This document shows, one piece after another, positions 7,319 through 60,146 of a stretch of 64,000 nt of DNA (position 1 is the first letter of the stretch; every line of letters begins with the position of its first letter). Below the pieces are notes generated by a model. That model had not been told where the DNA came from. It worked only from the letters and a program-made list of their open reading frames with translations, and made no database searches. The translations under genes and the position numbers were made by a program. Source of the DNA: Eledone cirrhosa (taxonomy: Eukaryota); contig OZ024741.1 in the NCBI GenBank assembly GCA_964016885.1, positions 286,130,001 to 286,194,000 on the forward strand, read 5' to 3'.

Positions 7319-7376
<58 letters not shown>

Positions 7377-7382
7377 TGTATA

Positions 7383-7479
7383 TAACAAAGAAGGTTAGAT
7401 AAGAAACCAGGTAAACCATAACGCACCATAGTACTCGATAGTTAGTGTAGTAGAGTGGGTAATAGGAAAAGAGTATTTT

Positions 7480-18246: not shown

Positions 18247-18295
<49 letters not shown>

Positions 18296-18296
<1 letters not shown>

Positions 18297-18484
18297 CGAA
18301 GGAAAAGTGGTAAGGAACCAGGTGGACCATAACGCACCGAAGTACTCAATACTTAGGGTAGTAGAGTGGGTAATAGGAGTAAGTAAGACCCCCGACGGCT
18401 GAGCTCAAGCCGTTTTGACGGCTAATTCTATACAGAATTAGCCGTCGAAACGGCTTGAGCTCAGCCGTCGGGGTCTTACTTACT

Positions 18485-24680: not shown

Positions 24681-24701
24681 TTATCTATCTATCTATCTAT
24701 C

Positions 24702-26390: not shown

Positions 26391-26400
26391 ATATATATAT

Positions 26401-26589
26401 AGGAACAAGTAAGAGCCAGACGGCAGAGCTCAAGCCGTTTCGACAGCTATTTCAGTTCAGAAATAGCTCGAAACGGCTTGAGCTCTGCCGTCGGGTTCTT
26501 ACTTGTTCCTATTACCCACTCTTCTACCCTAAGTATTGAGTACTTTGGTGCGTTATGGTCCATCTGGTTCCTTACCACAATTCCTTCGT

Positions 26590-26590
<1 letters not shown>
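26401..26590 (+). mobile_element. Fold-back family B
   Basis: Inverted arms plus family B tail; both arms share the CTCTG variant. Confidence 0.9.
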
Positions 26591-26621
<31 letters not shown>

Positions 26622-36160: not shown

Positions 36161-36165
<5 letters not shown>

Positions 36166-36322
36166 AACCGGTAAGACCCCGACGGCTGAGCTCAAGCCGT
36201 TTCGAAACGGCTTGAGCTCAGCCGTCGGGGTCTTACCGGTTCCTATTACCCGCTCTACTACCCCAAGTATTGAGTACTTTGGTGCGTTATGGTCCACCTG
36301 GTTCCTTACCACATTTCCTTCG

Positions 36323-36325
<3 letters not shown>
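36161..36325 (+). mobile_element. Fold-back family B (perfect 86-bp palindrome plus tail)
   Basis: 36161-36246 palindrome with apex TTTCGAAA. Confidence 0.9.
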
Positions 36326-36401
<76 letters not shown>

Positions 36402-38260: not shown

Positions 38261-38312
<52 letters not shown>

Positions 38313-38315
<3 letters not shown>

Positions 38316-38494
38316 CGAAGGAAATGTGGTAAGGAACCAGGTGGACCATAACGCACCAAAGTACTCAATACTTAGGGTAGTAGAGTGGGTAATAGGAACG
38401 AGTAGGACCCCGACGGCTGAGCTCAAGCCGTTTCGACTCGTCCAGAATTAGCCGTCGAAACGGCTTGAGCTCAGCCGTCGGGGTCCTACTCGTT

Positions 38495-38498
<4 letters not shown>
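38313..38498 (-). mobile_element. Fold-back family B
   Basis: Near-identical to 45190-45381. Confidence 0.9.
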
Positions 38499-38581
<83 letters not shown>

Positions 38582-39539: not shown

Positions 39540-40820
39540 AAGAAGCTACCTTACATAGCTGCTACAACACTACAACTGGGTGTACTGAAACAACTGCTAG
39601 ACAGCGCACATGTGGACGTGATATATCTTGACTTTGCGAAGGCATAACTGGAAAAGTAGGTGAGTGGTTGCATGACTTCTTAAAAGACAGAAGCCAGACA
39701 GTTGCAGCAAATGAGGCCCCCTCAAAGGAAACATCAATAACAAGTGGGGTGCCCCAGGGCACAGAATTGAGACCACTACTATTTTTGGTGGCTCTCTCAG
39801 ACATGCCCTCTGTCGTCCATACAACCTCCCTCACTAGCTATGCTGATGACACTAAGTAGGTAGACAGGCAATCAAAAACCCGGCTGACGCTGCCCTTTTA
39901 CAACAAGATCTGGATGCCACATACAAATAGGCTGAAGAAATGCACTTTAATGCTGGAAAATATCAAGCCTTACAATACAAACCTGCAATCACAAATACAG
40001 TACAACACGGCTACACCTGACCAGGAGGGATCGAAATTCCCGTGTGGAATTCGATACGAGACCTGGGAATAGACATGAGCGACGATGCATCTTTTTCCTC
40101 ATACATCATGAAGGCAACCATAATACGCAGACGACTCGCTAGGTGGATCTTGAGGACTTTCCGGACAAGAGACCGAGACACCATGTTGACACTATGGAGG
40201 ACATTTGTCCTAAGACGCCTGGGCTATTGCTCCCAGCTGTGGTCACCCCATAACATCAAACTAACCACGGAGCTGGCGGCAATCCAGCGAAGCTACACCA
40301 AGAGGATTGCGACGATGAAGGAGATAAGCTACTGAGAGAGGCTAAAAGAATTGAACCTCTACTCCTTGGAACGAAGACGGGAGAGATACGCAGTGATATA
40401 CATGTGGAAAATCCTGGAGGGACTAACACCAAACTTTGGCATTGGGAGCTGGACCAAACCCCAGAACAGGACGTCACTGTGTGGTGCCAAAGGTCCCGTC
40501 TTCCACATCTAGAATAAGGAGCAGATATTGCAATAGATTGGGGTTCAAGGGCCCTCAACTCTTCAGCAAGCTGCCGAGGGATTTGAGAGATCTGCATGGT
40601 GTGGAAGTGGATGTCTTCAAGAAACATCTCGACACCATGCTATCCAGGATCCCGGATGAGCCCACAGCACGACACGGGGGAAACCTAAGGGCAGCAGCAA
40701 CGAACTCCCTCTTGCACCAGTGGCCAACCAATACAAGCTGGAGATAGAATGTGTAGCATCAAAGGCGGTGGCGCAGCATGGCTTCAGCCGGATGGCTGGA
40801 ACAGGTAAAAGAGTAAAAGA

Positions 40821-42096: not shown

Positions 42097-42261
42097 AGTT
42101 ATGAATAAATGAAGTAAGTTCTAACCTGTTGACTTGTACTTCATGATTATAATTATACTCCGGAGTAAACAGACCCACTTGTCTACTTCGTCCAGGGCTC
42201 TATCCCACTACATACAATAGTGTCGGTTATTAACTAACTCATACTTTACCATATATATATA

Positions 42262-42594
<333 letters not shown>

Positions 42595-43458: not shown

Positions 43459-43947
<489 letters not shown>

Positions 43948-45072: not shown

Positions 45073-45427
<355 letters not shown>

Positions 45428-46530: not shown

Positions 46531-46665
46531 TAATTGTTTCTACTTTTGGCACGAGGCCAGCAATTACTCCAGTGCATTACTGGTACTTTATTTTATCGAC
46601 CCCCGTAAGGATGAAAGGCAAAGTTAACCTCGGCGGGATTTGAACTCAGACCATAAAGGGCCGTT
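46531..46665 (-). mobile_element. SINE subfamily A, 3' part
   Basis: Box B, core and tail; head missing. Confidence 0.8.
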
Positions 46666-47398
46666 ATTTTTTTTATTAGCCACTAGAGCCGACACATAAA
46701 TGACAGTTCAAAAACGGGGATTTACATGAAGTGTATAAAATAGATAACAGGAAATAACTAACAGTAAATTAACATCAATAAAAATTCCCCTGTAAGGGGA
46801 CCACCATCCATGGGTAACTTAGGAACCCTAGAGATCCTAAACCACGTTGATCTCTAAGAGCACCATCGGAAAATGACTCTTTCCTCTCAGCTTTCCAGCC
46901 TCTTGGCACATGGTCAGGGAAGGACCATTCATTTGTGCCATTCTCGCTACAATGACTTACCTTTTAACAAATGTACTGGATGACAACATTTCCCTCTCCA
47001 TCCTCACTTTCCTTTCCAAGTGGAACTAGAAAACGTTGATGAAGAATTGGCCAAAGAGAAAAGTCTCTATCTTAAGTCGTTTCAGCCGTGTCCGGCACAC
47101 AACCTCGTTCACTATAGCCACCTGACAGAAAACGGTGGGGTGATCTTCACGATGGACTCGGTCGAGAGCCGGATACGACCTACACACGACAATAGCTGTT
47201 CGACAACACTACACAAGTGAACAGTGCTCAGACACTGGCTAAGTACATACAGAACAGTTTCATCACTCCGCCCGTATCCCAGACAGGTTCGTCTGACAAC
47301 ACGCCCATGCGTATAAAATTTGTCTCTAACCGACAATGCCCACCGGTAGGCCTGCAATTCCTGGGATTTCTGAAAATCGTCCTTGTCTCCGGGCCGAA
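46666..47398 (-). mobile_element. Tx1-like LINE 3' fragment (diverged, A-rich end)
   Basis: QAYRWALSVRDKFYTHG...TCLGYGRSDETVLYVLSQC...VEQLLSCVGRIRLSTESIV is homologous to the ORF2 C-terminus at 56392-56900. Confidence 0.85.
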
Positions 47399-48539: not shown

Positions 48540-49490
48540 TTGCTTATGTATGATTAAAAAGTGGAAGTAATATTGGTATGAAAGATAGAATGGAAGAATG
48601 AAAGGAAGGAAAGAAAGAAGGGAGAATGAAGGAAGGATGAAAGAAAAGGGAAGGAAGAATATAAAAATGAAAGAAGAAGGAAAGATAAAAGAAAATTAAA
48701 GAGAAGAATAAAAAATGAAAGAAGGAAGGAAAGAAGCAAAAAAAAATGAAAAAGAAAGAAGGAAAAAAGAAAAAAAGGAAGGAAGAAAAATAAAGGAAGG
48801 AAATGAGAAAGAAAAATGAAAGAAGAAAGAAGGAAGAACGAAAAAAGGAGGAAGAAAGGAAGGAAGAAAAATAAAAGAAGGAAAGAAGAAATAAAAAGGA
48901 AAGAAAGAGGCAGGAAGAAAGAAGGAAAAAGAAAAGAAAGAAAAAGGAAAAATGGGAAGTGTAAAGTCTGAAAAGGGTGTGTGAAGGAATGAAAGAACGA
49001 ATGAAAGAAATAATAGGGAATAGGAAGTAATAAAGAATTGTATAAAGAAAGAAAGAATTCAAGGTTGATTAAGGAAGGAATTGGAAAAGAAAGTAACGAT
49101 GAATAACGAAAATCAGAAAAGAATAGAAAATAGAAGGAATGTATTGTAGAAAGAAAGAGGGAAGGATAACTAGGTGGATGGGGAATAGAAAGAAAGAACT
49201 ATGAAAGAAAAGAGGATAAAAAGGAAGGGAAAAGAATGAAAGAAAGAAAGAACCGAAGAAGGAAATAACGAAAGAAAGACAGAAAGAAAGGAAGGAAGGA
49301 AGGAAAGAAGGAAGAGAGAAAGAGGATAAAAAGACAGAAAAAAGGAAGATTGAATGAAAATGAAGCACTGAAGGAAGGGAAGAAGGGAGAAAATGTATTT
49401 GTGATGACAAAAGATAGAAAGAACGAGTGGAAACTATAGAATGAAAGGAATGATTATTTAAAGAACTAAGATGACAAAGAACGAGAGAAT
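48540..49490 (+). repeat. ~950-bp purine-rich low-complexity tract
   Basis: Degenerate GAAA/GGAA repeats. Confidence 0.9.
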
Positions 49491-49510
49491 AATAGATAGA
49501 TAGATAGATA

Positions 49511-50142
49511 TATTTCTTTATTTGCCACAAGGGCGTACAAGAAAAAGGGACAATACAAATACATATGCCGGGGATTTTACATACAATCGTGTAAAAATAT
49601 TTTTAAAACAAACAAATTCAACAATCGAAATCCCCAATGGGTTGTTTAATACCCCGTAGATAGAACAACACTCAACTCCAGGAGCATGTTGTGCAAGGGC
49701 CCCTGTCTTCCTTTTGCTCTCTTCTTCAACCTACAGGCTTATATACAGAGAGGGCCCAATCACTCGGGCCATTTTAGTGGGGTGCAGTGCCTATGTCACC
49801 ACTCGGATTCTCCTTCTAAAGTGGTACCTAAAGAAGAGAATGAGTTGTTGTCCGGAGAGAAAGGCATCTGTCCTCAGTCCTCTCAATCTCGTCCACCATA
49901 TAACCTCTTTTACCATACAGAAGAAAACCGCCTCTCTTTCGTTTTACTATGGACTTGGCAGTCAACTGGATTTGTCCCATACGCGACAGCAGTTGTTCTG
50001 CGTAGTTCCACAGGTCGGTTACGCCAGGGCAGTATAGAATTGCGTGCAGGACGGTTTCAATGTCCTGATTGCATCTTGGACACGTCCTCATGGAGAGATC
50101 CCTGCCGGGGCGTCCGTGCCTGTAGATCTTGTCTCGAACTGG
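49511..50142 (-). mobile_element. Tx1-clade LINE, 5'-truncated copy
   Basis: LPVRDKIYRHGRPGRDLSMRTCPRCNQDIETVLHAILYC zinc finger; 3' end abuts (TATC)n. Confidence 0.9.
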
Positions 50143-50377
50143 TAGATAGATAGATAGATATATTTCTTTATTTACCATAACGGCATAAAAAGAAGGGACA
50201 AATACAAAGGGGGAGTTTACATACAATCGAGTAAAAAGGGTATAAAATGAAAATAATCGAAAACAACCTCAAAAGGGAGGGGACGTGATGGGGGTTGCAC
50301 ACACCCCCGAAAAAGTGTGCAATCCTTTGCCCGGGGAGCACATGGAGAAGGTGCTCCCCTCTCCTTCACTTCTTTAC

Positions 50378-53300
50378 CTACAGGATGGTATACAGAGAAG
50401 GCCCATTTACACGAGTCATTCTCGCCACTATCACCCACCTTTCATAAAACTGCCTGTGGCCAAGCACCTCTCTCTCCATTCTTATCCTTCTTCCGAAGTG
50501 ATATCGGAAGAAGTAGACCAGACTATGGCCAGAGAGGAAGTTGCCTGACCTCAGACCTTTCAATCGTGTCCACCAAACAACCTCTTTCAACATGGCTATT
50601 ACGCACAGAAAAACCGCCTTTGCTTCCTTTGTGAAGAGGGGAGGCGGTTTGATTGTCATCACAGACTCGGCGGTCAATCGAATCGGCGCCACCCGCGACA
50701 GCAGTCGTTCGGCGTAGCCCCACAGATTAGCCACGCCCGGACATTGCACCAATGCGTGCGCAACGGTTTCTTCGTGACGCACGCATCTAGGGCAAATCTT
50801 TTTCGAGGGATCCCTGCCCGGGCGCCCGTGTCTGTAGAGCCTCTCTCGAACGGGTAAGAGCCCCCCCCCCCCGGTAGCACTGCCAGGCTAGTGACTTCTG
50901 GAAGTTGTCCATTGGTCCCGGGCCGAAAGTCCTACCGAACAGGCAGGCCAGTTCGTCCTCTTCCATGTCCAGCGACTCTCCAAGGGTGTCATCGCCCCTT
51001 GCTAGCCACCAGCCCTCTATAGAATGATGAGGTGGATTCTCCACCGATGGCCTGGCCCGCTTTCCAGAGAGCTCTGAGCGCCTGGGCACACTCAGTGTGC
51101 CAGTCTCCCAGTTTCCGGATCTTTGCTTGACCCAGGACTGCAGCTCGGTGAGCGAGACGAGTCTCGGAAAGGCTCGTTTCACGAACGAAGCCCGCACCGG
51201 TTGACCAGTGAGGAATACCTGTAGGTGCCGTAGCCTTAATGCGTGCCTACGCATCATCAACCACGGCATCCCCAGCCCTCCTTTCGAAGGTTGTTGGCAG
51301 CAGATGGATCTTCTCACCATAGGAGGGCGCTTCTTCCAAAGAAATTGGAAGAGCATGCGTTCGATTGTGGTGAGTGTTTCCTTAGGGCAAGGCACGACAG
51401 TCAGGCGGTAGTAAGTGACGGACGCTATGTAAATGTTCGCCACCTCCGCCCGACCTTTTAGGGACAGCTTACACTTGGCCCATTTCTGGGTTAGTGCAAA
51501 CACCTTGTTCGTAACCTCGTCCCAGTTCTTTTCCACCTGGAGGTCCGGTCCAAACCAGACCCCAAGCAACTTCACCGGGCCCTCCGTCCAGTGTCCTACG
51601 ACACCGTCGGGAGGCATCGATCTGCCTCTCCACGTTCCGAGTTGCACCCCGATGGATTTTTCCCGGTTCAGTTTCGCTCCTGACAACCTTTCGTAATCCT
51701 CTAGTAAGGTACCGATCGCCTCGATCTCCGAGTCGGTCGATACCATTGCTGTTACGTCATCGGCGTAGGCCGACACCGCTTTGCTCAATCCTGGTTCCAG
51801 GGGGATACCCTGCAACAACTCCAACTTCCTCAGTAAAGGCTCGAGAGTCAATACGTACAGAAGGGAGGAGAGAGGGCACCCCTGTCGAATGGATCGTGTG
51901 ATTTCGAACGGCTTCGAAAGGTAGCCGCTCACCTTGATCCTAGAACAGATGTGGTTGCTATGTAAGGCAGTGATCCAGCCTCTAAAAACAGGACCGAACC
52001 CAGCCGCCGCTAGCACCGCATCCAGGTAACCATGGTCGACCCTATCGAAGGCCTTAGACTGATCCAAGTTGATCAGGGCCCCACCGAAGCCGCGTTTGTT
52101 GCCAACCCTCTCTATGATGTATCGCATGAGGTGGAGGTTATCGTGAATGGACCTGGATGGGATAGCACATGTCTGCGCATCTCCAACCAGGCCACCCACG
52201 ACAAGCGCCAACCTCTTTGCTAACACATTGGCCAAAATCTTTAACTCTGTGTTTAGCAGGGTTATGGGCCGAAAATTATTTATATTATCCTCCTTGTTCT
52301 CGTCCTTCCTCACCAGCGAGACTACGCCCTTGGCTACAGAACAAGGAATTCTCCCGTTCTGCTGCCAATTGCAGTAGACCGCTTCGAGGAGTTCGGAGAA
52401 GAAGACCGGCATTGCTAAATAAAGTTCGTAAGGTATACCATCGAGACCTGGAGATTTGCGTCTGCTGCATTGGCTCAGCGCATCCCCGATCTCATCAGCC
52501 GAGATTGGTTCCTCGCAGGACTCTGCCTCTTCGCTCGAGAGACGCGGCAGGCCGTCGAGGTATGGACCGAAATCCACGTCCCCGCCCGGACCCTCGCCTC
52601 CCCCGAATAATCAGGCAAAGTGCTTTTGAAAGGCCTCGCACATCTGCTTAGGCTCCCGGATCACCCGTCCATCCTCGTCTTGCAAAGACCGGATGGTGGA
52701 TCGATTTCCACTCTTAGCTTCTGTCACGCGGGCCCAGCCAACGGCTTTGGCCCCCTCATTACCTAGAGCACGTATTTTACTTCGAATGATGCAGCCTTCG
52801 TGCTTTGCATCGAAAAAACTGGTTCAAGGCCGTCCTCGATGCCAGCACTCTGGCCACATCTTCGCTCTTGATTGCCTCTTCTAATTTACCTGTTAATTCT
52901 TTCTCGTTTCTATTCCTATCGGCAGCTAACATCTTGCTATAACTTATTGATTCTGTTCTAATCTCTCTTTTGAGAGATGCCCACCATCGGTTGTTGACGA
53001 TTGCACCCGTCAACCTCTCCTCAACTAATCTGCTAATCCGGTTTCTGTAAGTCTCTGTTGCCGGTAAAGACAAATTAAGTTTCCAGTAACCGGGACCCTG
53101 TTTATGTGTTTTCTCGAGATTGACTACGCAGGTCACTAATTTGTGATCCGTATAGCCAACCGTGAGCATTTCTGGACAGCTTAATATGTCCCTATCCTTA
53201 CTTCTAACTAAGAATCTATCTAAGTACGATCTAGATTGACCACTGTGGTTCGTCCAAGTCCAGGTTGGCACAGTTGGAAAATCTAGTCGATATCTATCGA

Positions 53301-53826
53301 CCAAGTTAAAGCGGTCGAGTAACCCCTTGAGGCTGTTACACGCCCCCCCTCTATTAGGACATGCTCCTGCATAGTCCCAACGTGCATCTAGGATGTCATT
53401 CCAATCCCCCGCTAGAAGCAGGGAACGCGACGTTCCCAGAAAAGTCTCCAAACGCTGGAAGAAGTCGGGCCGTTCAGCTCCGAAAGGGGATTAGACGGCG
53501 ACCAGTCTCAAGGCCGCACCTTCACTACTGCCAACGTCTAGCACCAACAAACGACCCTCCGGGTCCGAGTGAACAACCTGTACGGCAAGACCCAGGTGTT
53601 TTTGCAGCAGTACGACAACCCCACCCCCACCTCCAGGTTGACAGAGAGATGCATGCACCTCAAAGTCATCGAAGGTAGGGGCCAGCTGCCGCACGACGCT
53701 GATCCGAGTCTCACAGATAACCATTACATTTATACCACATGACCTGAGGTCATTTAGAAGCTTTCCTTGCTTCCAAGTTGAGCCCAGGCCACGTGCATTC
53801 AAACATCCTACTCTTAACACATCCAT
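50378..53826 (-). pseudogene. ORF2: AP endonuclease + reverse transcriptase + C-terminal zinc finger, disrupted
   Basis: CLNARGL, CETR, AGDWN, SYLDRF, TDHKLV, GPGYWKLN, KSPGLDG, FRPITLLN, DQSKAFDRV, RQGCPLS, AYADD; frameshifts near 53480, 52815, 50870 and a stop near 52612. Confidence 0.93.
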
Positions 53827-54101
53827 GTGGGCGGCAAAGCCAAAGGAGAGTGTAGAGACCTACCTTTCTGCTTCCCGGGGTTCGGGTGGCAGGACTTCCA
53901 TGGGGTCGGGGTGTTAGGTGAAGGTGTGTCTTGTGGTGGTGTGGGGTCGTCAGTGTGTGGTGGGGTTGGGGTGTTTGGAGTTGTGTTGGGGAGGGGAAGG
54001 GGAGGGGGAAAGCTTTTTAGCAGGACGTGGTTTATGGGTTTGACAGAGGGTGGTCCTACGTCTTCATTAAAATCCTTTTTTAGTTTTTGGTAGAGGTTCA
54101 T
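53814..54101 (-). CDS. Pro/Thr-rich ORF between ORF1 and ORF2, probably frameshifted ORF1 C-terminus
   Basis: ATG overlaps ORF1 stop (ATGA); stop overlaps ORF2 start. Confidence 0.45.
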   Translation of the reverse strand: MNLYQKLKKDFNEDVGPPSVKPINHVLLKSFPPPLPLPNTTPNTPTPPHTDDPTPPQDTPSPNTPTPWKSCHPNPGKQKGRSLHSPLALPPTWMC

Positions 54102-55621
54102 TGGATCTTTATTAATTTTAAATGTGGGTAGTTTTCTGAAGAAACAAAGTTTACACCTTCGGTTTGTACCGAAGGATTATTGTTTATGAGTTCATTTAAT
54201 TTATTATTGTTTCTGTTGATGTAAGTATAGTGTAATGTCTTTTTTTCGGATGGTGTGAGTGTTTCGAAGAGGGGATGGGCAGGTTTGGTTTTGTTTGTTG
54301 CTGGAGGGGTGTTTTGTATTTTGTTGGATTGTGTTGGCATTTGGGTGGGGGTTGTTTGGCCTTGTGTGTTTTGCACATGTTTTCTTTTTTTCCTTTTAAT
54401 CTGTCTGAAGGACTCCGTTTCTTCCTCCGAATTCGTTGGGTTATATTCAGTGTTGGAGGGAAGAGGTATGTTTGCTGGTAATGTTTCCGTGTTGGTTTTC
54501 TTTGTGGGGGAGATGGATGTCACTATGTTAGACTGTGTTGTGTGTTGTGGCTGCGGTGGTTGTGTTGTTTTATTGAGTGAGGGGTTGGGTGGGCCTGTAT
54601 TTTGTTTTGGGGTAATGTGTTGTGACTGTTTGTGTTGTGGTGGTGGTGTAGTTTTACTGAGGGACGGGTTGGGTGGGACTGAGTTTTGTTGTTTGTTTAT
54701 CTGTTGTGGTGGTGGTGGTGGAGCTGGTGTTGGTAGCAGGGTTTTCTTTTTGTTGAGTTGGGGACAAGCCGCCTTCAGGTGCCCTCTGCCTGCACAGATA
54801 TGACAGGACGGCCTTCTCCCCTCCACGCTAATGTTTATATACCCGTGGCCCTCTAATAGGATTCTGTCGGGTATTTGGGCGATGCGTTCAGGCTTCATTT
54901 GCACTACAAGTTCTATACCTGTTCCACTGAACGCATTGCCTGTGGTTTTCCCAATGGAAATCACGTTGTCATTCGCTGGATCGATGAAGCCAGCTATGAG
55001 CCAGCAGCAGTCCACATCTGGCATCATTGCATCCAGCCATATGCGTTGAGTTCTTTTCCCCATATAAGATGGATAAAAGGTAAAATTTTTCGAACGAATC
55101 GGTGACAAAGCACATTTTTTTGACGCCGATTCCTCCTTCATAATAATCGCTAGGCTTCCATACCGTCTGTCTTTTCTTATGAAAGTGGTTTCATTAAGTA
55201 CTTCCGTAAGTACTGTTTTGATTTCTGTTTGAGTTGGTTGTTCAGGTTTTTTAGAAATGTTGTTGATGGTGCGGAAAACGACCGTTCGACTTTCAATGTC
55301 TTTGGTGAGTTCTTGAGGCATTTTTACCGATAAAATACCATTTTCTCTTTCAGTTATATATTGTTTGGCGTCTGTAATTCTTTGTGCCACATCTGAAATA
55401 TTTTCAGGTATATATGTCAAAGATTTCTTTGTTGTTTGTGCAAATGAAATATTATTGGTGTTGACTTTGTCGTCTGCTTTGCTTTCTGTTATGATGTTGT
55501 TTTCAAATGTTATTTTTGTGTTTGTCGTGTCTTTGTTTGTGGTATTAATATTGTCATGCAACTTTTCAAATTTTTTTTTTTTCGTTGTTGGAATCAATGT
55601 CCAGATTTGTGTTTTCGTCAT
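54098..55621 (-). CDS. ORF1 gag-like nucleic-acid-binding protein (507 aa)
   Basis: CHICAGRGHLKAAC zinc knuckle then Pro/Gln/Thr-rich region; homologous to 58650-59300. Confidence 0.85.
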   Translation of the reverse strand: MTKTQIWTLIPTTKKKKFEKLHDNINTTNKDTTNTKITFENNIITESKADDKVNTNNISFAQTTKKSLTYIPENISDVAQRITDAKQYITERENGILSVKMPQELTKDIESRTVVFRTINNISKKPEQPTQTEIKTVLTEVLNETTFIRKDRRYGSLAIIMKEESASKKCALSPIRSKNFTFYPSYMGKRTQRIWLDAMMPDVDCCWLIAGFIDPANDNVISIGKTTGNAFSGTGIELVVQMKPERIAQIPDRILLEGHGYINISVEGRRPSCHICAGRGHLKAACPQLNKKKTLLPTPAPPPPPQQINKQQNSVPPNPSLSKTTPPPQHKQSQHITPKQNTGPPNPSLNKTTQPPQPQHTTQSNIVTSISPTKKTNTETLPANIPLPSNTEYNPTNSEEETESFRQIKRKKRKHVQNTQGQTTPTQMPTQSNKIQNTPPATNKTKPAHPLFETLTPSEKKTLHYTYINRNNNKLNELINNNPSVQTEGVNFVSSENYPHLKLIKIQ

Positions 55622-56003
55622 TTTTCTCCGCAGATTCGTCTGTTTTTATTTTATTTTTTCTTTCCTTCTCTATGACGTTAGTTGGGAAGGAAGGGGGGAC
55701 TAAAGCGTGCGAACTTACAACTCTTACCACTGTCCCCCCACCACTATTTTAGTTGGCTTCGTTTAACATTTCTGTCAGACGATTGAAATTTTTTATGCCA
55801 CAAAATTTTTAAAAACAGGTTTTTCACCCCTAGGAGGGGTAAAGATGAGCTGACCCACCGCCTGACAGTTCAGACGGGGGGTCAAGCTACACAATAGTAT
55901 CAAAATTAAAATTGAACTTACAAAATTTCCGCAATAAATTTGAACAAAACTTCTGCGCGAAGTGAATTACATCTACACTGTAGAACAGACGACAGCTAGA
56001 TTA

Positions 56004-56004
<1 letters not shown>

Positions 56005-56076
<72 letters not shown>

Positions 56077-56085
56077 CAGATAGAC

Positions 56086-56126
<41 letters not shown>
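56005..56126. repeat. (GATA)n between two Tx1 elements
   Basis: Direct reading. Confidence 0.95.
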
Positions 56127-56127
<1 letters not shown>

Positions 56128-56391
56128 GTTTCTTTTATTTGCCACCAGGGCATCAAAAGTGGGACAAGTACAATGGGGGGGGTTTACAAAACAAGGCGTC
56201 CTCAATAAGGAGGAGGCAATAACAATATATAAAAATAAAATAAAATATAACAAAAAATAAAATGTATAACAAAGTCCTCAATAGAGAGGAGGCGCCTTGG
56301 GGGGTCGCACACACCCCCGAAAAAAAGTGTGCAACCCTTCTCCTCAGGAGCACAGAGAAGGGGTGCTCCCTTGGTCTTTCATCTTCCTCAC

Positions 56392-58317
56392 CTATAGTCT
56401 GATGTAGAGTGAAGGCCCATTCACACGGGCCATTCTCGCCACTTTCACCCATCTTTCATAAAAGCGGCTGGGGTGCAGCACCTCTCTCTCCATCCTGATC
56501 CTTCTTCCGAAATGATATCGGAAGAAACGGACCAGTTGTTGGCCAGAGAGAAAGGTGTCTGACCTCAGTCCTTTCAGACGCGTCCACCATACAACCTCTT
56601 TCGCCATGGCTATTACGCACAGAAACACCGCCTCTCCTTCGTTTTTGAAGAGGGGAGGCGGCTTGATCGTTACAATAGACTCGGTGGTCAACCGGATCGG
56701 TCGCACCCTTGACAGCAGTTGTTCGACATAGCCCCACAGATCGGCAATGCCCGAGCAGTGTACCAATGCGTGTGCAACGGTTTCCTCGTCGCACACGCAT
56801 CTGGGACAGATCTTTTTCGATGGGTCCCTACCCGGGCGCCCGTGTCTGTAGAGCCTTTCTCGAACGGGCAGAGCCCTTCTGTAGCATTGCCAGGCCAGGG
56901 ACCTCTGGAAGTTGTCCATCGGTCCCGGGCTGAATGTCCTACCGAACAGGTTGGCCAGTTCGTCTTCCTCCATGCCTAGGGCTTCTCCGAGGGCGTCGTC
57001 GCACCTGCTAACCACCAGCACTCTATAGAATGACGAGGTGGATTCTCCACTGACAGCCGGGTCCGCCTGCCAGAGAGCCGTGAGCGCCTGGGCACACTCG
57101 GTGTGCCAGGCGCCCAGTTTTCTCGGTCTTTGCTTGACCCAGGATTGCAGCTCGGTGAGTGAGACGAGTCTGGGAAAGGCTCGCCTCACAAACGGGGCCC
57201 ACACCGGTTGACCGTGGAGGAATACCTGAAGGTTCCGTAGCCTTAATGCGTGTTTATGTATCATTAGCCACGGCATCCGCAGCCCTCCTTTCGAAGGGTG
57301 TTGACAGCAGATGGATCTCCTCACCATAGGAGCCCGCTTCTTCCAAAGGAATTGGAAGAGTTCGCGCTCCATTTTGGCGAGCGTTTCCCTTGGGCAAGGC
57401 ACAACGGTCAGGCGGTAGTAGATGACGGACGCTATATAAGTGTTCGCCACCTCCGCCCGACCTTTCAGGGACAGTTTGCACTCGGCCCACTTCTGGGTCA
57501 GTGCAAACACCCTGTTTGTTACCTCACCCCAGTTCTTCTCCACCTGGAGGTCTGGTCCGAACCAGACCCCGAGCAACTTCACCGGGCCCTCCATCCAGCG
57601 CCCGACGACGCCATCGGAGGGCGTCGATCTGCCCCTCCACGTGCCGAGTTGCAGACCGATCGACTTGTCCCGGTTCAGCTTAGCCCCTGTAAACCTTTCG
57701 TACTCCTCCAGTAAGGTGCCGATCGCCCCGATTTCCGAGGCCGTCGACACCATTACTGTTACGTCATCGGCGTAGGCTGACACCGCTTTCCGCAATCCCG
57801 GTTCCAACGGGATGCCCTGCAACAACTCCAACTTCCGCAGCAGTGGCTCTAGAGTCATTACATACAGAAGAGAGGAGAGAGGGCACCCCTGTCGTATGGA
57901 CCGCACGATTTCGAACGGCTCCGAGAGGTAGCCGTTCACCTTGACCCTAGAGTAGATGCGGCTGCTGTGCATGGCATTGATCCAGCCCCTGAAAACGGGT
58001 CCGAAGCCTGCCGCCGCTAGCACCGCATCCAGGTAACCATGGTCGACCCTATCGAATGCCTTAGATTGATCCAAGTTGATCAGGGCCCCACCAAAGCCGG
58101 GTTCGTTCCCAACCCTCTCTATGATGTATCGCATGTCCCTCTCCTTCTTTCTAACTAGAACCCTATCTAGGTACGATCTAGATGTTCCGCTGCGATTAGT
58201 CCACGTCCACAGTGGCACAGTCGGAAAATCTAGTCGATATCTATCGGCCAGGTCAAATCGGCCGATTAACTGTTTGAGGCTGTTACACCCCCCCCCTCTA
58301 TCGGGACATTTTCCCAC
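56392..58317 (-). pseudogene. Internally deleted ORF2 (EN remnant fused in frame to RT and C-terminal zinc finger)
   Basis: SYLDRVLVRKKERD|MRYIIERV junction; DQSKAFDRV, RQGCPLS, AYADD, CPRC...H...C. Confidence 0.9.
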
Positions 58318-59297
58318 ATAGTCCCAACGTGCATCTAGGATTCCATTCCAGTCCCACTCTAACAGCAGGGAGCGGGACGTTCCCAGAAAAGTCTATAGAC
58401 GTTTGAAGAAGTTTGGCTGCGGTGTCCCGGATGAGCATATGATGACACCAGCCTGAAGGCTCCACCTTTACTACTGTCAACGTCTAGGACCACCAGTCGA
58501 CCTTCCGGGTCCAGATGTACCGTCTGCGTTACGAGGTCCAGGTGTTTCCGCAGCAAAACGGCAACCCCACTTCCCGGCTGACAGAGAGATGCGTAGATCC
58601 CAAAGTCGTCGAAGATGGGGGCCAGTTGTCGCCCGCTGTGGATCAGGAGGCTCTCAGGTGACCCCTGCTTAATCAGTGGTAACATGAGGGCCGCCTACCT
58701 TCGACCGTAATGTTTATGTATATAAGCCCATCCAGCAACAGACGTTTCTGGATCCTAGCTATTCGTTCTGGTGTCATTTGGACCAGAACTTCCAGGCTAG
58801 TTCCGCTGAACAGGTCGCCGGAGGACTTACCTACCGATATTATATAGTCTGTTTCGTTGTTTAAAAATCCACATAGTACCCACTAAATGTCAATATTTGG
58901 TGTGATACTTTGTATTTTTATTTTCTGTGTTCTTTTCCCCATTGGCGACACAGAATATTTATGTGCCGTCAATTGGTCTTTCATTAGAATGGATAAACTC
59001 CCGTAGAGTCTACCCTTCTGAATAAAAGCAATGTCTTTTAAGGCATTTTTTAAAGCCAACTCAATTTGGCCTTGTGAAAGTTGAGTCGGTTTTCGTGTTT
59101 TATTTGAGATTGTCCTGAAAATCACAGTTTTCAAGGCAGCTTCTCTTCGCAAATCTGGGGGAGAGTTTATGGAGAATGATCCGTTCTCCCCAAAAGTTAC
59201 ATATTGTCTGGCGTTATTCAAAAGCTCATTTGTATTTGAAATATCTACTTACCGTTTTCTTTACGGTTTGCGCAAATGATATTTTGTCGTTTACTTC

Positions 59298-59497
59298 NNN
59301 NNNNNNNNNNNNNNNNNNNNNNNNNNNNNNNNNNNNNNNNNNNNNNNNNNNNNNNNNNNNNNNNNNNNNNNNNNNNNNNNNNNNNNNNNNNNNNNNNNNN
59401 NNNNNNNNNNNNNNNNNNNNNNNNNNNNNNNNNNNNNNNNNNNNNNNNNNNNNNNNNNNNNNNNNNNNNNNNNNNNNNNNNNNNNNNNNNNNNNNNN
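59298..59497. other. Assembly gap (200 N)
   Basis: Direct reading. Confidence 1.
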
Positions 59498-60010
59498 TGT
59501 TGTCGGGGTGGGTTTTAAACATATCGAAGTGTTTCAACGAGGCGGTGCGAGCTGCTTCTTGGCTTGACAGTTTTACCGTCCCTCCACCACCTCTGTCTAA
59601 TTGTTGGCTGACAGATGTGATGTTGTTGTTGTTTTTGTTGCTGTTGTTGTTGCTGTTGTTGGTGATGGTGGTGATAGCAACAGACAGGCAGCCTTCACCT
59701 ACTACTAGTACTGTGGAAGGTGATATTAACAGCCCATCTCCACAATTCTCTGATGTGTTTTTTGTGAAGATGAGGTCAAAGAATTTGGCCATTTTGGCTA
59801 TATTCAAAATTCCGGTAGAAATTTTGTGGAATTTCTCCGTTTTTCGCCCTGATGGGCTTATTATTTGGGGTTGCGACCACCTGCAAAGTGTAGGGTGGCA
59901 GCTTATCTACAAAATGGTGTAAGAATGTAGATTAAGTTAATGCAATTTCCAATGAAATTAAAACATTTACTCACCAGCGCGTTTTCCACGTGTTAGACAG
60001 AAGATAGATA

Positions 60011-60035
60011 TATTTCTTTATTTACCATAAAGGCA
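60011..60035 (-). mobile_element. 25-bp Tx1 3'-terminus insertion with 17-bp target-site duplication
   Basis: TATTTCTTTATTTACCATAAAGGCA (24/25 identical to 50161-50185) flanked by TAGACAGAAGATAGATA at 59994-60010 and 60036-60052. Confidence 0.85.
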
Positions 60036-60042
60036 TAGACAG

Positions 60043-60044
<2 letters not shown>

Positions 60045-60140
<96 letters not shown>

Positions 60141-60146
60141 GATAGA
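60045..60146. repeat. (GATA)n microsatellite
   Basis: Direct reading. Confidence 0.95.

Follow-up and report, generated by a model that had tools for sequence, protein, structure and literature searches.

A LINE lineage of the L1/Tx1 group that probably inserts into pre-existing (TATC)n repeats, where its copies stack head to tail

Within the 64,000 nucleotides of genomic DNA analysed here, referred to as the window, four pieces of LINE sequence from three subfamilies lie head to tail on the minus strand inside a single (TATC)n tract (49492-60146). The locus raises the question of whether such elements seek out the repeat as target DNA or make it themselves upon insertion. The earlier note on this DNA had placed the four 3' ends at 49511, 50161, 56127 and 60011, and all four positions are right. 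Each piece ends in AATAAA(A)GAAA plus two further nucleotides and then passes, without poly(A), directly into TATC. TATC also adjoins every 5' end (50143-50160, 56004-56126, 60003-60010 and 60045-60146), and the other GATA tracts that had been called empty (13023, 31906 and 34510) are indeed free of lineage sequence within 1 kb, as is a further tract at 24682 scanned over the same distance.

The stack, all of which is read on the minus strand, opens at its 3' side with a (TATC)n tract (49492-49510) that represents a target remnant together with a copy of the target-site duplication (TSD). Copy A (49511-50142) is a 632-bp, 5'-truncated 3' end of an older subfamily with about 80% identity to the L320/L321 group, and contains the 3' UTR and the end of ORF2 with a zf-RVT-like finger (Pfam zf-RVT, E=0.005). 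An 18-nt, TSD-sized TATC spacer (50143-50160) forms the boundary to copy B (50161-56003), a full-length LINE of 5.84 kb. Its ORF1 (about 54098-55645) has a single CCHC knuckle and its ORF2 (about 50378-53835) follows the order endonuclease (EN), reverse transcriptase (RT) and zinc finger, with Pfam matches to RVT_1 (E=4.5e-26), Exo_endo_phos (E=3e-6) and zf-RVT; stops and frameshifts break the ORF2 reading frame in copy B, and an intact copy, L068, is 95.5% identical to it. A (TATC)n tract with two GACA-type interruptions (56004-56126) separates B from copy C (56127-60002), which belongs to a second subfamily about 85% identical to B over the RT, has its head end at 60002, carries an internal deletion near 58135 that fuses EN to RT and spans a 200-N assembly gap (59298-59497). 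Copy D is a B-type 3' stub of 26 nt (60011-60036), enclosed by a 16-bp direct repeat (59995-60010 and, identically, 60037-60052) consisting of two TATC units and 8 non-repeat bases from the head of C. The (TATC)n tract 5' of the whole stack occupies 60045-60146. A single 21-bp TSD enclosing A and B together was considered and rejected, as the extra bases are the head of B.

The elements are composed of a gag-like ORF1 with a CCHC knuckle, followed by an ORF2 with an N-terminal APE-type EN, the RT and a C-terminal CCHC finger. An ORF2 of this EN-RT-finger order behind an ORF1, together with 5'-truncated copies and TSDs, the footprint of target-primed reverse transcription (TPRT), is what characterises the L1 group. 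ORF1 contains one CX2CX4HX4C knuckle, a feature of the Tx1 clade, and gave no match in a Pfam search. The EN and RT catalytic motifs are intact, and an open ORF2 of 1,150-1,156 codons is present at 13 of the 100 loci sampled below. In phmmer searches ORF2 scores 331-564 bits to TX1-named proteins of catfish (P0065) and turtle (P0027) and to U2- and 5S-flanked elements. Human L1 ORF2p (PDB 8sxt) shares the EN-RT-zinc-finger organisation, aligned over residues 8-855, as well as TPRT with TSDs, but it scores only 175 bits and inserts with poly(A) at T-rich sites. A 206-row FastTree of the RT, built without named Tx1L, Kibi, Koshi or Keno sequences or a verified L1 outgroup, groups the lineage with the U2-flanked, 5S-flanked and TX1-named rows (support 0.84-0.86). 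Membership of the L1/Tx1 group is thus supported, the Tx1 placement being suggested by scores and tree neighbours rather than by named Repbase references. The copies had been described as one Tx1-clade family; the lineage comprises six or more subfamilies. The nearest proteins (P0001-P0026) are 37-41% identical over ORF2, the clusters of 10 hits carried no name informative for the group, and a metagenome scan contained no close relatives, its best long matches being about 30% identical.

Genome-wide counts were made with 3'-end patterns free of TATC, because a query containing the repeat is biased. These patterns gave 1,698 + 16,282 matches, or about 18,000 exact 3' ends. Within the set of 16,282, 11,262 (69%) continue as NN-TATCT, and the GATA orientation (GATAGAT) follows in only 5 rows from 4 places. 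When a variable gap was allowed the figure was 618 of 832 on the forward strand, the only valid one since the reverse strand was counted twice. A blind sample of 100 B copies, chosen without sight of their flanks, was compared with a background of 200 kb of random DNA. The earlier note had proposed scoring the 3' junctions for strand and phase; both are fixed, with TATCT following in 85 of the 100 copies against 0.25% of random positions and lacking in the other 15. TATCTATC, that is two or more perfect units, follows in 54 (background 0.019%), (TA)4 in 4 (2.2%), (TC)4 in 2 (0.08%) and poly(A) in none of the 100. The insertion site is approximately TATC^TATCTAT, a short motif that is strongly but not absolutely preferred, a few copies residing in (TA)n or (TC)n.

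TATC confined to the 3' side, with random 5' flanks, had been named as the pattern of an element-made tail. Two TATC units are instead found within 40 nt of the 5' junction in 77 of 100 copies and in 60 of the 68 full-length ones, compared with 0.5% of background; in older subfamilies TATC was present at only 18 of 40 crude 5' alignment ends, many of which are internal breaks. Informative TSDs, of 13-23 bp and including non-repeat bases, flank 33 of 100 copies, against a mean of 1.5 and a maximum of 3 in 30 permutations, and 32 of the 33 measure 16-23 bp. They begin at the first TATC and extend into unique sequence that is identical on both sides. Where the first 8 nt depart from TATC, the two TSD copies share the deviating bases in 19 of 23 anchored cases. 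The remaining 67 copies mostly have pure repeat on both sides, and 16 of the 100 gave no TSD call. Since TATC borders the 5' ends and the duplications carry non-repeat bases, the repeat is pre-existing target DNA and not a tail made by the element. At L095/L096, inside a 33-bp minisatellite, adjoining units show the unfilled site. Reads at L155 and L143 included no joint that skips the element, and hence no empty allele, but they are uninformative: X1-X3 may derive from the very sample that was assembled, and the flanks lie outside the coverage of the RAD runs.

Copies of this large, young lineage of the L1/Tx1 group thus occupy (TATC)n that was already present, always on one strand and with TSDs of 16-23 bp. 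The likely cause is that its own APE EN nicks the GATA strand, leaving a free end from which reverse transcription is primed. The nick would fall at 5'-GATA^GATA-3', in either of two neighbouring registers that would account for the A or C preceding TATC. The RNA probably reads past AAUAAA by a few UAUC bases, which would pair with the primer and leave no poly(A) to be copied, and second-strand cleavage about 19 bp away would produce the TSD. TATC would remain on both sides of each insertion and the site stay usable, allowing later copies of any subfamily to stack head to tail.

In the RT phylogeny a subclade sitting in a satellite of about 72 bp falls inside the TATC clade, whose sisters are (ATT)n-flanked; sister lineages have their other repeats on both sides of the copies. 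Target class changes 5 times on a 53-row RT tree compared with 20 when shuffled. Target choice thus appears to be heritable along the tree, with shifts between (ATT)n, (TATC)n and the satellite. An Rfam search matched neither the satellite-flanked loci nor two intact copies. The junction base, A or C, changes 8 times on a 68-copy tree against 23, none of 2,000 shuffles being as clustered, and is C in all 25 youngest copies; a nearest-neighbour test over the last 1.5 kb found no signal (49 of 97 versus 47.9).

The inherited junction base of the youngest clade would also suit a different, less probable arrangement, in which insertion is likewise into existing repeats but the EN is only loosely specific. 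Specificity would then come mainly from base-pairing between the nicked strand and the UAUC of read-through RNA, and the target would shift whenever a master copy inserted into a different flank. The best-kept positions of the informative TSDs, +1 to +7 (T33 A33 T33 C27 T33 A27 T33; n=33), are those a primer would expose, the site used in the satellite is similar to the TATC motif and the EN loops differ little, the hairpin loop failing to separate TATC from ATT lineages cleanly. Within the EN domain (residues 1-240) the TATC, satellite and ATT types do differ around residues 60-66. However, positions -1 to -8, although looser, also favour TATC (19-29 of 33 each), a bias that pairing alone would not produce unless long tracts merely have a higher chance of being hit. 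Moreover, mismatched targets such as TATATGT or TATCTTT were accepted without correction, and PMC4494074 credits the EN with targeting in the Tx1 clade. A test for correction of the 3' TSD copy from the RNA template was null (1 versus 1), which leaves pairing of the RNA, in either arrangement, a supposition.

A wider picture may be drawn, if tentatively, in which a single animal genome houses an undescribed Tx1 radiation that is probably still active and has changed its EN target two or more times, first from (ATT)n to (TATC)n and then to the 72-bp satellite. It would include the first GATA-targeting LINE and form a natural series for APE-EN specificity, with enzymes 55-80% identical and intact copies of both the GATA and the satellite type. 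Related enzymes with different targets and intact ORF2s would make a change of specificity testable by swaps; loops grafted from one EN to a distantly related one did not behave as modules (PMC1950540).

GATA is among the commonest animal tetranucleotides, and 15 tracts of at least 12 nt in the 200-kb random sample correspond to about 75 per Mb; a count of 53,610 tract starts covers one start phase only. A GATA/TATC tract start lies directly behind a 3' end of the 16,282-match set in 17 of 100 cases. The lineage hence adjoins a considerable fraction of all GATA tracts in the genome, shaping their distribution, and would confound GATA markers. A second lineage copy lies within 150 nt of 55 of 100 copies, compared with 12 of 380 random windows, and 70 of 71 neighbours share the same orientation. 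Random insertion followed by selection, or tandem or segmental duplication, is very unlikely to have created the association and the stacks: repeats may be tolerant sites, and L009/L010 and L095/L096 are duplicated pairs, but strand and phase are fixed, the stacks mix subfamilies of 67-85% identity in which each copy has its own TSD, and (TA)n, 100-fold commoner, is used only about twofold over background. It is hardly conceivable that the TATC behind every 3' end in the window, and behind so many tract starts, is a tail seeding microsatellites, as is reported for CR1-L3 beside ATAG/AATAG repeats in snakes (PMC8303610), given the 5' TATC, the TSDs that reach unique sequence, the duplication of C's head by stub D and the different repeats that border sister lineages at both ends. 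The case also shows that a LINE may be associated with GATA without having seeded the repeat.

Dong, Waldo, Mino and Togen are of other clades (R4, R1 and NeSL-related), and the (ATT)n-flanked sister would parallel Dong. As described in the texts of PMC3812793 and PMC4640811, they are non-LTR elements specific for other microsatellites, namely (TAA)n, (ACAY)n, (AC)n and (TG)n, respectively. Closer counterparts are two teleost Tx1 families, Kibi in (TC)n and Koshi in (TTC)n, and the crocodilian Tx1 elements of (TTCC)n/(TTTC)n repeats (PMC4494074 and PMC3812793), which like the present lineage are APE-type Tx1-clade LINEs specific to a microsatellite. The hosts of these elements are vertebrates, whereas the present host presumably is not, and Kibi and Koshi differ in target from the lineage, which occurred in (TC)n in only 2 of 100 copies. 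Where more than 20% of flanks in one sequence class marks a target-specific element (main text of PMC4494074), the lineage stands far above, with 54-85 of 100 at the 3' side, 77 of 100 at the 5' side and 69% of the 16,282 matches. A (TATC)n target is absent from the main texts of PMC4494074 and PMC3812793, and a literature search found no GATA-targeting LINE, although the supplements and Fig. 3 (Tx1 targets) of PMC4494074 may contain a GATA-type entry. GATA is thus missing from the published lists found, which cover TC, TTC, TTCC/TTTC, AC, ACAY, TG and TAA. In Octopus vulgaris 13 recently active L1-Tx1 families with 421 listed insertions are reported (PMC13282606), in a main text that describes no specificity and lacks the words "target", "GATA" and "nested"; if the present host is an octopus, these families could include the lineage.

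Long branches separate the RT from that of the fish/turtle Tx1 group, with a sister support of only 0.51. Keno, which targets U2 snRNA, Mutsu, whose target is 5S rRNA, the U2-flanked L229/L230 and the 5S-flanked L232 have the same ORF2 layout as the lineage (351-466 bits), but elements of the Keno/Mutsu type are about 29-30% identical, belong to another subclade and target genes rather than microsatellites. The 3' flank of the U2-flanked L230 likewise starts with N-TATCT.

A single interrupted (TATC)n tract, at window positions 49492-60146, contains four minus-strand LINE pieces, which bears out the stack of same-orientation insertions described in the earlier note. These are a truncated copy A (49511-50142), a full-length copy B (50161-56003), copy C (56127-60002), which has an internal deletion and spans a 200-N gap, and copy D (60011-60036), a 26-nt stub of the B type. 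A, B and C are 67-85% identical; Pfam detects reverse transcriptase (RT), exo/endonuclease and zf-RVT domains on the stack, and ORF1 has one CCHC knuckle. D is flanked by a 16-bp direct repeat composed of two TATC units and 8 bases from the head of C and, because this repeat includes both, D was inserted where the repeat and C already existed. The other GATA tracts (13023, 31906 and 34510), noted previously as empty, were so when inspected. Directly adjoining the stack is about 900 bp of low-complexity, purine-rich sequence (48550-49490).

Within the 3.0-Gb assembly, a 19-nt pattern from the B 3' end, lacking TATC, has 1,698 matches; other subfamilies, searched with a degenerate pattern, give 16,282. 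The strand and phase of TATC, which the earlier note had proposed to score, are marked: two bases and then TATCT follow 11,262 of the 16,282, the equivalent ATTATT follows 2,207, and GATAGAT lies within 5 nt of the end at 4 places only. Among older subfamilies TATCT follows in the same way at 32/40 loci, and TATC is present at 18/40 of their crudely placed 5' ends. The 1,698 matches were sampled by taking the first 100, which are on contig C1 without exception and were picked irrespective of flanks, with 7.5 kb around each; they were compared with the share of positions in 200 kb of random DNA. On the 3' side, TATCT is found in 85 copies (background 0.25%), TATCTATC in 54 (0.019%), (TA)4 in 4 (2.2%) and (TC)4 in 2 (0.08%); poly(A) is found at the 3' junction of none of the 100. 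Two B-type 3' ends, L132 and L135, are followed by the same non-TATC sequence, which suggests a common later insertion or duplication.

Such 3' repeats could be a tail made by the element itself. However, two TATC units lie at most 40 nt from the 5' junction in 77 of the 100 copies (background 0.5%), including 60 of 68 full-length ones, with GATA orientation in a single copy. Target-site duplications (TSDs) of 12-25 bp with at least three non-TATC bases are carried by 33 copies, against a mean of 1.5 and a maximum of 3 in 30 permutations that re-paired the 5' and 3' flanks; L095 and L096, both among the 33, represent one duplicated insertion. All but one (32/33) are 16-23 bp long. The site reconstructed from this subset, which over-represents short or broken tracts, is approximately TATC^TATCTAT, with +1, +2, +3, +5 and +7 invariant. 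Over the first 8 bases, non-TATC deviations are identical in both TSD copies in 19 of 23 anchored cases; a tail cannot produce these, and that reading therefore fails. L095 and L096 are identical full-length copies within a 33-bp minisatellite containing the target motif, the unfilled site is visible in its other units, and the pair was duplicated after insertion. Against this, no TSD was detected in 16 of the 100 copies and no allelic empty site was seen at two loci examined. In a RAD read run from a different sample, 359 reads (loci uncounted) broken at one internal position run into GATA repeats. Insertion of this L1/Tx1-group lineage into (TATC)n as a target is real, strong, and strand- and phase-specific.

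Every TSD would restore TATC on both sides of the insertion and, with the target renewed at both ends, the site could be reused and stacks would form. A lineage neighbour lies within 150 nt of 55/100 copies compared with 12/380 random windows, and 70 of 71 neighbour junctions are in the same orientation, although a few may be fragments of one rearranged copy.

The lineage is young. ORF2 is open (1,150-1,156 codons) at 13 of the 100 loci with endonuclease (EN) and RT motifs intact, and the closest full-length neighbours, the duplicated pair aside, reach 99.7% identity. AATAAA is located 6-7 nt ahead of the element end. On the ladder-like tree of 68 copies, 35 have A and 33 have C as the base preceding TATC, with C in 25/25 of the youngest clade and sporadically elsewhere (8/43); this base changes 8 times compared with 23 when shuffled (0/2000 shuffles). 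A nearest-neighbour test over the last 1.5 kb gave no signal for this base. A one-way A-to-C ratchet would be consistent with RNA reading through into the flank, but also with a young enzyme whose nick register has altered.

Sister lineages occupy other repeats. An older related 3' fragment in the window (46660-47330, minus) has SINE-like repeats either side, and that at about 46560-46660 presumably resembles a SINE from Octopus genomes. Together with the abundance of microsatellites and the assembly size, this would suggest an octopod host. Relatives of this fragment (L162-L185, L296-L306) have the same end signal followed by (ATT)n, or in a few (TAA)n. A further subfamily, fetched at seven loci (L307-L313), has a ~72-bp satellite in its flanks, and a 36-mer of this satellite is matched 22,925 times. 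Open ORF2s occur in the subfamily, and some of its copies are arrayed ~5.9 kb apart (4.229-4.259 Mb of contig C1, assembly G000). A 53-row RT tree, including the window row and six random B rows to the exclusion of other B rows, places the TATC rows, a class that includes TA-, TC- and one-mismatch variants, in one clade (SH-aLRT 95). The satellite rows (100) are nested within the TATC clade (98), and target class changes 5 times compared with 20 when shuffled. Since the two ATT groups outside this clade form an unresolved fork, ATT may plausibly be the ancestral target. The EN is ~55% (ATT type) and ~75% (satellite type) identical to that of B. A segment near residues 60-66 distinguishes the ATT type from the others; the beta-hairpin loop implicated in PMC1950540 gave no clean separation of ATT from the remaining types in the EN comparison.

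The best protein matches are unnamed (44-49% over the RT), followed by fish and turtle elements, one TX1-named. Among the elements from a metagenome scan, L229 and L230 have U2 snRNA flanks and L232 has a 5S rRNA flank, presumably a Mutsu-type target; L229, L230 and L232/L233 are full-length Tx1-type elements on metagenome contigs. A U2 flank is the Keno-type target (PMC4494074). The 3' flank of L230 starts G-TATCT, resembling the N-TATCT junction of the lineage, and a U2-like match lies within the 5' part of L216, L222 and L230. ORF2 scores 331-564 bits to the fish, turtle, U2- and 5S-flanked elements compared with 175 to human L1. The lineage groups with P0001-P0026 (support 1.0) among Tx1-type rows of a 206-row RT tree, which is without named Tx1 references or a verified L1 outgroup. 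The Tx1 assignment proposed at the outset is favoured by ORF2 scores and tree neighbours, and membership is likely, not proven.

No GATA-targeting non-LTR element was found in the full-text literature searched, including passages of PMC4494074, PMC3812793, PMC4640811, PMC8869645, PMC3747384, PMC8303610 and PMC1950540. Active L1-Tx1 families are counted in Octopus vulgaris, with targets unmentioned in the text seen (PMC13282606). The mechanism is of the known TPRT kind, and the (TATC)n target was not found in the print searched. The lineage sequences may well be catalogued already, and the target may have been noted in Repbase, Dfam, the 2004 Kibi/Koshi paper or the PMC4494074 target figure or supplements.

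An element of 150-210 bp that carries a long palindromic arm occurs about eight times in the window (~7360-7468, 18274-18479, 26399-26611, 36161-36345, 38293-38499, 42251-42468, 43611-43761 and 45169-45383), mostly with (TA)n on both sides; it looks like a TA-targeted, non-autonomous element. Broken ORFs at 40021-40747 (plus strand) presumably resemble the C-terminal part of the RT protein of another LINE.
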